This document shows positions 47,190 through 50,502 of a stretch of 50,502 bases of DNA, piece after piece. The notes beneath the pieces were generated by a model. It was not told where the DNA came from, did no database searches, and was given only the letters and a program-made list of their open reading frames with translations. Made by a program: the position numbers and the translations under genes. Source of the DNA: an uncultured bacterium (GTDB taxonomy: Bacteria > Muiribacteriota > UBA6191); assembly GCA_964539825.1 (NCBI GenBank), contig CAZIKF010000024.1, forward strand, positions 20,794-71,295. The letters are read 5' to 3'. Each line of letters starts with the position of its first letter. Positions within the stretch are counted from its first letter, which is position 1.

Positions 47190-47359
47190 TATTAAGTTTC
47201 CATGCTCTTATCTACTGGGTAAGGACCAGAGCAATCGAGAGTTAGTTTCACTATAACTGTGTTCTGCAATCGAAAATTGACCCAGGTTGTCATCGAAAAT
47301 TGACCCACCCATTTCAAGTATAACTTCTCCTAATTAATCTTTCATTCCGCTCCTTTGAA

Positions 47360-48115
47360 TTACCCTTTTGAGGTCTTGGTTTTATCCTTCATCCTGTAGC
47401 TGTCACTTCCTGTCTCAATGATTTCACAGTGATGTGTCAGTCGGTCCAACATGGCGACTGTCATCTTCTTACTATGAAAAATGGAATCCCATTCCGCGAA
47501 ATCCAGGTTAGTCGTGATTATGATGGACTTGGATTCGTAGCATTGACTGAGAAAGTGAAAAAGTAGCTGGCCACCGGCGGTTGAGAATGGCAGATAGCCA
47601 AGCTCATCCAGGATGATCAAAGAGACATTCTTCAACCTGCGAAATATTGTCCCAGCACGGTTTTCTTCCTTCTCTTGCTCCAGCTCATTTACCAGATCCA
47701 CCAGGTTGTAAAAGCGAACATGCTTTCCCTGGTGAATTGCACTAAGACCTATTGCAGAAGCTAGATGAGTCTTGCCGGACCCACTGCCACCCATGAAAAT
47801 GACATTCGTCCTTTCTAGGATGAAGTCCCCATCATAGAGCCTACGAATCAAGGCTTCATCCAATTGTGACTCTTCGAAGATAAAGCTGTCGAGATCCTTG
47901 TCCTGCGAGAATCGAGCTTTATTAATTCTCATCTTCAAGGCAGAATTCTTCCTTGAATCACATTCATGCTTCAACAGCATGAATAGAAACTCCTGGGAAC
48001 TCTTACGCGCTGCGTTACACTGGCTTTGAACCTCATCATAGACTCTTCTGGAGGCTCCGAGTCTTACTTCCTTGAGCATATCTAAAATCGCTTCACGTCG
48101 AGATGGTTCATTCAT
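47360..48115 (-). CDS. istB: IS21-family helper ATPase IstB
   Basis: Walker [12 protein letters not shown] and Walker B IILDELGY. The DnaA/DnaC-like AAA+ core is typical of IstB. Confidence 0.9.
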
Positions 48116-49632
48116 GAGAGCCTCCTATTTCGAAGTATTTCGTCATAGTGTTCCAGCGCTTTTTGATTCGCCTTGTACTGCCCTAGCTTATGATCAATTG
48201 AAATAGGTTCGCTACAATCCTGCGGCTCCAGCTGACGCCTTATTGTGGAGAGGATATAACTATCACTAGTCAAACCCAGTTTCAGGGCTTGCTCAATCCC
48301 TTTGGTGACTTCTCCAAGAGGCCAGTCCTTTAAAAGGAGAAGTGTCTGTGCAAAGATCTTATCCGGGTTCCTAACCTTCTTTCTGAGAAGATCCCGGTAT
48401 TTATAGAATACAGAAGGTAAATCCCAGCCCTTAAAAGGCATCCCATCTTCAAAGGCCCTGGGTTTCTTCACCAGGAGTTCCAGGTAGTGTGTGGGATCAA
48501 AGATCAGGTGCTTTTCCTTATAGGAACGTAGGTGCCTTGTAATGACATTACCCTTGTAGCTCACAACGAGATCCTGGTAGAAGGCTTTGACCAGGACGCT
48601 TCTACCCACATAGGCCGTAGGAACCGAATAGCGGTTATTGTCAAAGCGCACGGTGCTGCTTGGTGATACAACAACGTTTGCCAATCTACAGCTTTCGAAT
48701 TCATGGGCAGGGAGCGGGATCAGGTATTGCCTCTCCCTCTCAAATACCTCGTACCTGGATTGATCGTGAAACTCAGGATGATTCTTAGTTCTTGAGTGAG
48801 CTACACAGAAGCTCAAAAGGCTGGAATTCAAGTCTTCTAGAGTCTCAAATTCAGGGATTGGGGCAAAGAAATTCCTACGAATGGTCCCAATCAGATTCTC
48901 AACTCGCCCCTTCTCATTACCACTGGCTATATTGCAGAACTCAGGCACATAGAGATAGTGGGAGCAAAGCTGTTTAAAGCGCTCCTGCAGAAGCCTGCCC
49001 CTGCCGCATAAAACCCGCTTGACCGCAGTTTTCATGTTGTCGTAGATGCCACGCTTGCAGCTTCCTCCAAAGAAATTGAAGGCCCTACAATGAGCATCCA
49101 GCATCAACTCGTGCTTCTGGTTTGGATAAGCGTGGGCAAAGAAGGCTCTGCTGTGAGATAACTGCAAGGCAGCTAACTGAAGTTTCACTTCCTGTTTGTT
49201 GACCCTGGCATAAACTTCGCCCCAGTCAAACTGAAAGGCATCACCAGCTTCATAGTAAAGAGGGATGTACGCTTCCTTGCTGGCCTGATTAACCTCCCTG
49301 CGAACTTCCCTGATACAGCGGGCTATGCTTTCATAACTGCCCTTATAGCCATAATCCTGGCAGAGAATCACATAAATGCGCTTTGCAGTGCGCTTGTACT
49401 TTTTCTTTACGAGCAAGTCTTCCTTCAGCCACTGTTCAATCAGCTCATAGCAGTTGCCTAACGCAGGCTTAGGGGAATTCTCTCTTTCATAGCTAAACTC
49501 TGTCTTCTTACTTCTGAGAATTTTTCTTACGGTGTTTCGGGAAATCCCTGTTCTCTTAACGATCTCCCGGATTGAAAGGCAGTTAACAAACTTTAACCGC
49601 CGGACAAATTGAATCTGATCCACACTCATCAT
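48112..49632 (-). CDS. istA: IS21-family transposase IstA
   Basis: N-terminal HTH ([21 protein letters not shown]), DDE integrase core, and a C-terminal IstA-specific region. Start taken at the MMSVDQ Met pair, 11 codons inside the longest ORF. Confidence 0.9.
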
Positions 49633-49728
49633 CTCCCTTCCTCCTGACGGCTCATAAAAGCACAACCAGGAAGAGGTTGGGGGTGGGTCAATATTCGATT
49701 ACAATTTCTGGGTTAGGTGGGTCAATTT

Positions 49729-50502
49729 TCAGTTACAGAACACATCCCCCCATAGGTCATAGATAAAGCGATGATGGCCAATGACGCCGGCCACTGCGGG
49801 TCCAGAGTTTATCCCTACTCGAATGCTTAAATCGTTTCCAACTTCTTGGTTGAATTCCGTCAGGATTTTTTGCATCTTCAATGCGAATCGTGCCAATACA
49901 TGGGCATGCTGATCCTTGTGGACTGGGAGACCGGAAGCTGCCATGTATGCATCACCAATAGTCTTAATTTTTTCGATCTCCAGACTCTGAGCGGCTTCAT
50001 CAAAGCGGGAAAATATCTGGTTGAGAAGTTCCACTAACTCCCTGGGATCGGTTTGGGATGAAAGTTGTGTGAATCCAACTAGATCCGCAAACAGTACGCT
50101 AACTTCTGAAAAGCGGTCGGCGATAGTATTTTCTCCGTTATTCAATCGATTCGCCACCGGCTCAGGCAGGATGTTCAAGAGTAGTTTTTCTGATTTTTGC
50201 TTTTCTGCGTTCAGTTCCTTATTTTTGTCCACTAACTGGATGCGGACCTTGTCTAACTGGCCCAGATAGTAGTAGATCAGGGGAAGGATGATGAGTGGAA
50301 ATCCCAATACACAGACCATATCAAAATAGATGTTAACCTCATGTGGAAGACCATCCCTGAGTGAGCTGATTTGCGGATTGAAAAGAACTAACAAGACCAC
50401 GGTGCAGATATAGGCCAGAGTCCATATCTGGTAGGCTCTTTTTGAGGACAGGAAAGCCGCCCCCAAAGGGGTCATTGCCCCCCAGATCATCATCGCACCG
50501 AT
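49729..50502 (-). pseudogene. Membrane-anchored class III adenylate/guanylate cyclase. Its catalytic domain is truncated by the IS21 insertion, and the 5' end runs off the window.
   Basis: FADLVGFT...IKTIGDAYMAASGLP...IRVGINSGPAVAGVIG..RFIYDLWGD is the class III cyclase core. The reading frame enters the IS at the Asp codon (GA|T) and stops 4 codons later, so the expected 'TVNLASRMES...' is absent. The ORF is still open at position 50502. Confidence 0.75.

Follow-up and report, generated by a model that had tools for sequence, protein, structure and literature searches.

A complete IS21-family insertion sequence without flanking repeats adjoins a truncated membrane class III cyclase gene in an uncultured bacterium

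Insertion sequences of the IS21 family generally duplicate 4-8 bp of target DNA at the site of insertion. The ends of these elements are built of two repeat units, both of which are needed by the IstA transposase, and integration proceeds through staggered cuts, with 5-bp repeats found at all of the IS5376 insertions (PMC10122671). In Mycobacterium tuberculosis, copies of IS6110 that lack flanking repeats mark deletions that arose by recombination (PMC2448390). Here, we describe a 50.5-kb stretch of DNA from an uncultured bacterium, referred to below as the window, in which a repeat-less IS21-family element adjoins a membrane cyclase gene that is cut within its catalytic domain, an arrangement that is probably the scar of an IS-associated deletion.

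The element is a complete IS21-family insertion sequence of 2,487 bp that spans positions 47258-49744, with istA and istB both on the minus strand, and it is delimited by its terminal inverted repeats, its family matches, and the alternative flanks that it meets elsewhere. The istA transposase gene occupies 48112-49665 on the minus strand if read as an open reading frame from a TTG at 49665, while gene callers place its start at an ATG at 49632 or 49629, yielding proteins of 506 or 505 aa. IstA matches the NCBIfam model NF033546 (IS21 family transposase) with 272 bits against a cut-off of 160 and over the entire profile (1-294 of 294), and it further matches Mu-transpos_C_2 (PF22483; the C-terminal barrel) at 5.5e-18 and rve at 2.5e-6. 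The istB gene (47360-48115, minus strand) encodes a 251-aa AAA+ helper ATPase, and its start overlaps the istA stop in an ATGA at 48112-48115. IstB matches NF038214 (IS21-like element helper ATPase IstB) with 265 bits against a cut-off of 200 and PF01695 (IstB_IS21) at 5.3e-69, and its Walker A motif reads GGSGSGKT. The two genes by which the family is recognized, a DDE-type istA and an AAA+ istB directly downstream of it, are thus both present. With IS21, IS5376, IS100, and IS408 the element shares an IstA with helix-turn-helix, DDE, and beta-barrel parts, an overlapping istB, TG...CA ends of two units each, and a length of approximately 2.5 kb. It differs from IS5376 in that its IstA is longer, at 505-517 aa compared to about 400 (PMC10122671).

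The arms of the terminal inverted repeat lie at 47258-47284 and 49718-49744; they are 27 nt long, complementary at 24 of 27 positions, and of the TG...CA type. The istB-side terminus (L, 47258-47310) consists of two repeat units at 47258-47284 and 47287-47310, each of which contains ATCGAAAATTGACCCA, with the two copies 23 bp apart. The istA-side terminus (R, 49681-49744) likewise consists of two units, at 49718-49744 and 49681-49704. The element therefore has the TG...CA ends with at least two repeat units apiece (L1/L2 and R1/R2) that characterize the IS21 family. The core sequence GAAAATTGACCCA occurs four times in the window, always at the ends of the IS, against a chance expectation of 0.2. 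No terminal repeat is found elsewhere in the 50.5-kb window, and neither a second copy nor a fragment of the IS is present in it. The boundaries of the IS are fixed independently by other contigs in which the same ends meet alternative flanks: in contigs L008, L025, and L035, the istA side of the IS gives way to a different, unrelated flank at exactly position 49744, and in a 90%-identical variant (L038-L040) the istB side changes to another flank at position 47258. The profile matches to istA and istB and the 27-nt inverted repeats bear out the earlier sequence-only reading that the IS21-family element is intact. Both reading frames are uninterrupted and the same IS end is also present at a second flank, and by all sequence criteria the element is intact and apparently functional.

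Relatives of the IS are few. Neither reference genomes nor viral contigs gave any match (0 in each) in a scan with the IS-end pattern, and metagenomes yielded relatives with DNA identities of only 65-70% and 90%. When IstB is clustered at 90% identity, its cluster has just two members, this sequence and a single 90% variant that comes from other contexts. Twelve metagenome loci share the terminal repeat, mostly as one-ended or decayed remnants. Among these relatives we found none of the same IS lineage that has a clean duplication and could serve as a positive control, and the complete related copies (L024, L038, and L039) lack a clean 4-8 bp repeat. Judged by these comparisons, the IS is a previously uncatalogued IS21-family element and its sequence is new.

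The gene that the IS interrupts is the 5' part of a membrane class III (adenylyl-type) cyclase gene, which occupies 49745-50502 on the minus strand and continues past the end of the window. It matches the Pfam model Guanylate_cyc (PF00211) at 5.7e-43 over profile positions 4-127 of 183, which identifies a class III catalytic domain that is only partial. The complete N-terminus was read from an identical metagenome contig (L001), and the host-encoded portion of the gene amounts to 355 codons. The istA-side end of the IS adjoins codon 355, and the cut falls just before the TVNxASRxE motif; the residues encoded by the host end in FIYDLWG. A fusion tail at 49729-49746 on the minus strand closes the reading frame: an Asp codon is made up of GA from the host (49746-49745) and T, the first base of the IS (49744), and is followed by the IS-encoded residues V-F-C-N and a TGA stop. 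The proposal that the cyclase is cut in the middle of its catalytic domain at DLWGD, through an Asp codon that is half host and half IS, is thus confirmed.

The N-terminal part of the cyclase is multi-pass: four hydrophobic segments are clear, and there may be as many as six. Among solved structures, the closest are mammalian membrane enzymes, the adenylyl cyclases AC8, AC9, and AC5; next come the bacterial chains 7yz9, 4p2x, and 7yzi, deposited simply as 'Adenylate cyclase', which we take to be mycobacterial Cya/Rv1625c, and the structure-match alignments all end at WGD. The cyclase has retained the motifs FADLVGFT, KTIGDAYMA, and YDLWGD, each of which aligns with its counterpart in AC8 and AC9. 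From the roles known for the C1 and C2 domains of mammalian adenylyl cyclases, these retained motifs presumably hold both metal-binding Asp residues and the adenylyl-type Lys/Asp substrate pair. In class III cyclases, the Asn and Arg of the TVNxASRxE motif stabilize the transition state. The segment with this Asn and Arg is missing, since the frame leaves host DNA right after WGD, where homologues go on with TVNTASRMES; full-length homologues are 400-430 aa long and extend 56-70 residues past DLWGD. Like the six-transmembrane class IIIa adenylyl cyclases (Rv1625c/Cya and the mammalian halves), the protein has a multi-pass N-terminus, a short helical linker, and a catalytic domain, but unlike them it has lost the last third of the catalytic domain, including the Asn and Arg of TVNxASRxE. 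Because this transition-state pair is missing, the truncated cyclase is presumably catalytically dead; its membrane anchor is kept. Among 5.8 billion proteins we found no intact or IS-free orthologue of the cyclase, only the truncated 359-aa form, and the next relative is 45% identical.

We then compared the DNA on the two sides of the element. The sequence immediately outside the TG of the istB-side end is actataac, and that immediately outside the CA of the istA-side end is tcccccca. When a script moved each boundary over a range of +-10 bp, no direct repeat of at least 4 bp emerged at the flanks, whereas for random pairs of positions in the window a match of at least 4 bp turns up somewhere within this same range in 76% of cases. 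This result upholds the claim that the insertion lacks a target-site duplication, even with the IS ends redefined. In this respect the copy departs from what is expected of the IS21 family. The presence of a duplication is a property of the insertion event, so we argue that its absence points to a later rearrangement and does not speak against membership in the family.

Nor does the missing part of the cyclase lie on the other side of the IS. The interval between the istB-side end and the TTG start of the neighboring gene (47190-47257) is 68 bp long and holds no cyclase-like coding sequence in any frame. The neighboring gene itself (46563-47189) encodes an intact LysE/ArgO-type exporter (PF01810, 5.5e-28, profile 2-189 of 193), and it is on the minus strand, co-directional with the cyclase, istA, and istB. 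Using tblastn with 118 homologous cyclase C-termini, we found no counterpart either in the window, where the best E was 0.36, or among the fetched loci of the same organism, and the earlier statement that no cyclase C-terminus follows the left end in any frame is thereby sustained. The GC content of the window ranges from 0.42 to 0.49, with no step at the IS. We also considered an IS-driven outward promoter into LysE and rejected it, as promoter-like sites are fewer than in shuffled sequence.

Both junctions are found in other assemblies as well. Contigs with exact matches to IstB, IstA, and LysE number more than 20 and derive from ENA, JGI, Logan, and NCBI assemblies; the ones that were displayed and compared share at least 99.97% identity with the window. 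The two junctions are spanned together in at least seven independent assemblies (ERZ4231637, ERZ27237643, ERZ27245994, ERZ23491197, and JGI 3300038359, 3300038363, and 3300072015); six of the seven were compared as DNA and are 99.98-100% identical to the window, while 3300072015 was compared by gene order only. The junction-crossing contigs are 4-28 kb long and come from SPAdes, MEGAHIT, and JGI pipelines, and the recurrent gene order is GT2, cyclase (359 aa), IstA, IstB, LysE, a Band_7-like gene, and a response regulator. Given this recurrence of both junctions in at least seven independent assemblies, we regard an assembly artefact as excluded. A further contig on record, of 79.9 kb, contains the truncated cyclase, IstA, and IstB, as judged from its content and not from a displayed layout. 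Wherever a displayed contig with an exact IstB reaches past the IS, the gene after IstB is LysE and never another. Conversely, the exact 193-aa LysE was never seen without the IS among the displayed contigs, and exact look-ups of its 208-aa form returned no record. IstB and LysE occur in 26 and 27 index blocks, respectively, a ratio of approximately 1:1 that suggests one full IS copy per genome. Together with the small IstB cluster, these pairings also speak against a chimera of collapsed repeats. Since the truncated cyclase is the only form among the 5.8 billion sequences, the disrupted state appears to be fixed in the sampled population. The databases that we searched hold no IS-free relative or ancestral allele of the cyclase-LysE locus; relatives of the neighboring Band_7/MVP-shoulder gene are 42-62% identical (57-62% for the nearest ones in reference genomes) and show no synteny.

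The istA-side end of the IS has a second context. The alternative flank carries a Peptidase_G2-domain ORF, a tRNA-Gly(CCC), a 359-aa tyrosine integrase, and an 85-aa ORF that runs into the IS, and it is found in L008, L025, and L035-L037, all of which are contigs of no more than 2.8 kb. Two of these contigs come from the same samples as contigs with the cyclase junction (L035 and L036 compared to L005 and L002). With this second istA-side flank in the same samples, the IS occupies more than a single context within these communities, an observation that counts against the deletion reading. The IS linked to the tRNA-Gly/integrase flank (L025 and L035) is a distinct allele, with 97.9% identity and a 5-bp insertion plus 3 SNPs in 378 bp. 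The flank itself has a GC content of 49%, compared to 45% for the window, and it is mosaic, with 17 SNPs in 223 bp between two samples whose window-type contigs are identical. Because of this difference in GC content and this mosaic divergence, the context is probably a mobile element or belongs to a different genome in which the IS is also present. For the flanking ORF of this context, the databases contain no exact match (one match is 58% identical), and its integrase has no relative among viral contigs.

Several contigs around the IS show irregular joins. In L008, which was assembled with MEGAHIT, the tRNA-Gly/integrase flank is joined to the window allele of the IS and to LysE, and its SNP at 48730 (G>T) is shared with a cyclase-linked contig from a sibling sample; L008 may be a chimera or a real recombinant. 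The first base of L015 coincides with the IS terminus, a sign that the assembly graph branches at that point, and in L042 and L053 the cyclase flank and half of the IS are joined to unrelated sequence. A truncated copy of the IS at the tRNA-Gly/integrase locus was considered as the cause of the contig breaks within istA and was rejected, since the breaks stem from a different junction, at 48615, which is present on cyclase-linked copies as well. The 90% variant is present with one istB-side flank and two different istA-side flanks, none of them with a duplication. It is conceivable, if improbable, that the istA-side end of this IS lineage switches partners in nature, with a constant LysE flank on one side and either the cyclase or the tRNA-Gly/integrase flank opposite. 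If this were true, and neither a chimera nor a mixture of genomes, it would mean that one-ended, istA-proximal rearrangements recur in wild populations, and the integrase-bearing mobile element would possibly ferry the IS between genomes.

We infer that the arrangement in the window arose by deletion rather than by inversion or translocation, and we hold this to be the probable explanation because the ratio of IstB to LysE is approximately 1:1 and no other istB-side flank is seen on the displayed contigs. In the proposed course of events, the IS would have entered the cyclase-LysE neighborhood as a single copy or as two copies, and the DNA from one IS end to a second site would then have been lost, and with it the 56-70 codons at the 3' end of the cyclase gene. 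This could have come about as an adjacent deletion by intramolecular transposition or through homologous recombination between two directly repeated copies of the IS. Either route would leave a single IS whose flanks derive from different original sites and hence have no duplication, and the two scars would be identical. The situation resembles the IS6110 deletions of M. tuberculosis, in which a single repeat-less IS stands where genes are truncated or missing and has been read as the product of recombination between neighboring copies (PMC2448390). There, the undeleted ancestral state is known from other strains, whereas here no undeleted allele is present in the databases, so that the deletion is read from the scar alone. 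The claim that this is not a simple insertion but an IS-mediated deletion, an inversion, or a recombination between IS copies gains support from the presence of the junctions in at least seven assemblies.

The main competitor to a deletion is an inversion or reciprocal exchange between two copies of the IS that both persist, in which case the 3' part of the cyclase would lie elsewhere, beside the istB-side end of the second copy, and the sequence that originally adjoined the LysE flank would be found at the istA-side end of that copy. A 3' fragment of the cyclase may indeed lie elsewhere in the genome beside another, possibly partial or divergent, copy of the IS. The second istA-side junction, with the tRNA-Gly/integrase flank, does occur in the same samples as the cyclase junction, and the start of L015 at the IS terminus does mark a branch in the assembly graph. 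However, LysE is the sole istB-side flank on the displayed contigs with an exact IstB, the IS linked to the tRNA-Gly/integrase flank is a distinct allele (97.9%), and the GC content and mosaic divergence of that flank suggest a different genome or a mobile element. We therefore consider an inversion or exchange unlikely; more generally, an inversion or a persisting second full copy of the IS is disfavored because IstB is always followed by LysE, in 26 compared to 27 index blocks. Cointegrate formation and recombination events of the IS21 type join donor and target DNA without flanking repeats. A fusion or import of replicons could have come about as a cointegrate of the IS21 type that arose from a tandem or reactive junction, or else through recombination with an element that brought the IS in. 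It would make one flank the 'donor' and the other the 'target', and the 3' part of the cyclase would then lie on the far side of a second IS copy at a distance of more than 47 kb. That the IS also adjoins an integrase/tRNA element fits such a history, but the 47 kb to the left contain no second copy, the flank beyond the cyclase in L018 holds only SelO, MIP, HIT, GT2, and cyclase genes (according to its gene table), the GC content has no step at the IS, and the ratio of IstB to LysE is close to 1:1, so we give this history a small chance only.

We think it very improbable that the arrangement is an assembly chimera, in which two simple insertions of an identical IS were collapsed and the cyclase flank of one was joined to the LysE flank of the other. 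Chimeric-looking joins do exist around the IS in L008, L042, and L053, yet the path from cyclase through IS to LysE is the same across the SPAdes, MEGAHIT, and JGI pipelines and in at least seven samples, and the alternative products, a cyclase-IS-other or an other-IS-cyclase-3' contig, were never seen. Moreover, an exact 2.5-kb repeat in two copies should break short-read contigs and should not be crossed in one consistent way. There is, finally, the simple insertion of a non-duplicating element with no further event, for which one might point to the complete related copies L024, L038, and L039, three of three of which lack a clean 4-8 bp repeat. This explanation is effectively refuted by the loss of 3' coding sequence, since the 3' part of the cyclase is absent across the IS and sequence was lost whatever the rule of duplication, and its probability is accordingly minute; the staggered cuts of the IS21 family and the 5-bp repeats at all IS5376 insertions also stand against it (PMC10122671).

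The significance of the finding is local. The locus contains a new IS21-family element in an uncultured, deep-branching bacterium, and it represents ordinary genome damage with no new mechanism. For closing this genome, an IS without repeats usefully flags a place where DNA was deleted or rearranged in the past, and the damage has left the organism with a pseudogenized membrane adenylyl cyclase that is apparently fixed across many samples.

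The istA-side terminus of the IS21-family element, whose junction corresponds to window position 49744, has a second genomic flank besides the truncated cyclase gene. This second flank (L008:1-851, L025:128-1897, L035:1-2416, L036 and L037) is present in at least five samples, and the contigs that carry it are short in every case. It contains an ORF with a Peptidase_G2 domain, a tRNA-Gly(CCC), a tyrosine integrase and a cut 85-aa ORF, and its GC content is 49%, as compared to 45% for the window. Where it is readable, the IS allele beside this tRNA-Gly/integrase flank differs slightly from that of the window by a 5-bp ATGAG insertion. 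A solo remnant of the istA-side IS end was observed at L022:4574-4636, where a 34-bp deletion fuses its two repeat units; it lies directly after a fused N6-methylase/specificity-domain gene that resembles type I restriction-modification genes.

A variant that is 90% identical to the window element is found at L038:229-2437, L039:75-2269, L040 and L041. Its istA gene carries a 275-bp internal deletion (window 48972-49245 is absent). Three contigs share one istB-side flank, whereas the istA-side flanks of L038 and L039 differ from one another, and a direct target-site duplication was detected at neither L038 nor L039. The contig end in L041 is the exact IS terminus.

On its outer side, the window's istB-side end is bordered by the 7 bp CTATAAC (47251-47257), and exactly these 7 bp also border the istA-side end of a relative with 67% identity that lies in an unrelated contig (L029:869-875). 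Across the roughly 90 flank pairs, about 0.006 such matches are expected by chance; the match may point to a target preference or be coincidental.

Elsewhere in the window, the LysE gene adjoins a gene (45108-46499) for a 463-aa SPFH/Band_7 protein with a major-vault-protein 'shoulder' domain; this protein has relatives (42-62% identity) in MAGs of the Cloacimonadota, Muiribacteriota, Sericytochromatia and Anaerolineae. Positions 42634-43812 and 13597-15030 hold a paralogous gene pair of unknown function with a DNA identity of about 69% over 1.2 kb.

Two independent assemblies show the cyclase-linked IS fused inside istA, at window 48615/48616, to unrelated sequence (L042:4060-4113 and L053:1471-1611; see also L022:5564-5689). 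The joined sequence begins GAGGTATGGTCGAAAG... and opens the ORF VTKVRSIVEELWSPMEEVLRE, and 48615 plus k-1 is the starting point of many other contigs. The junction looks as if another repeated element had inserted into the IS in part of the population, as a nested insertion, and this apparent insertion is why several MAG contigs are broken mid-istA.
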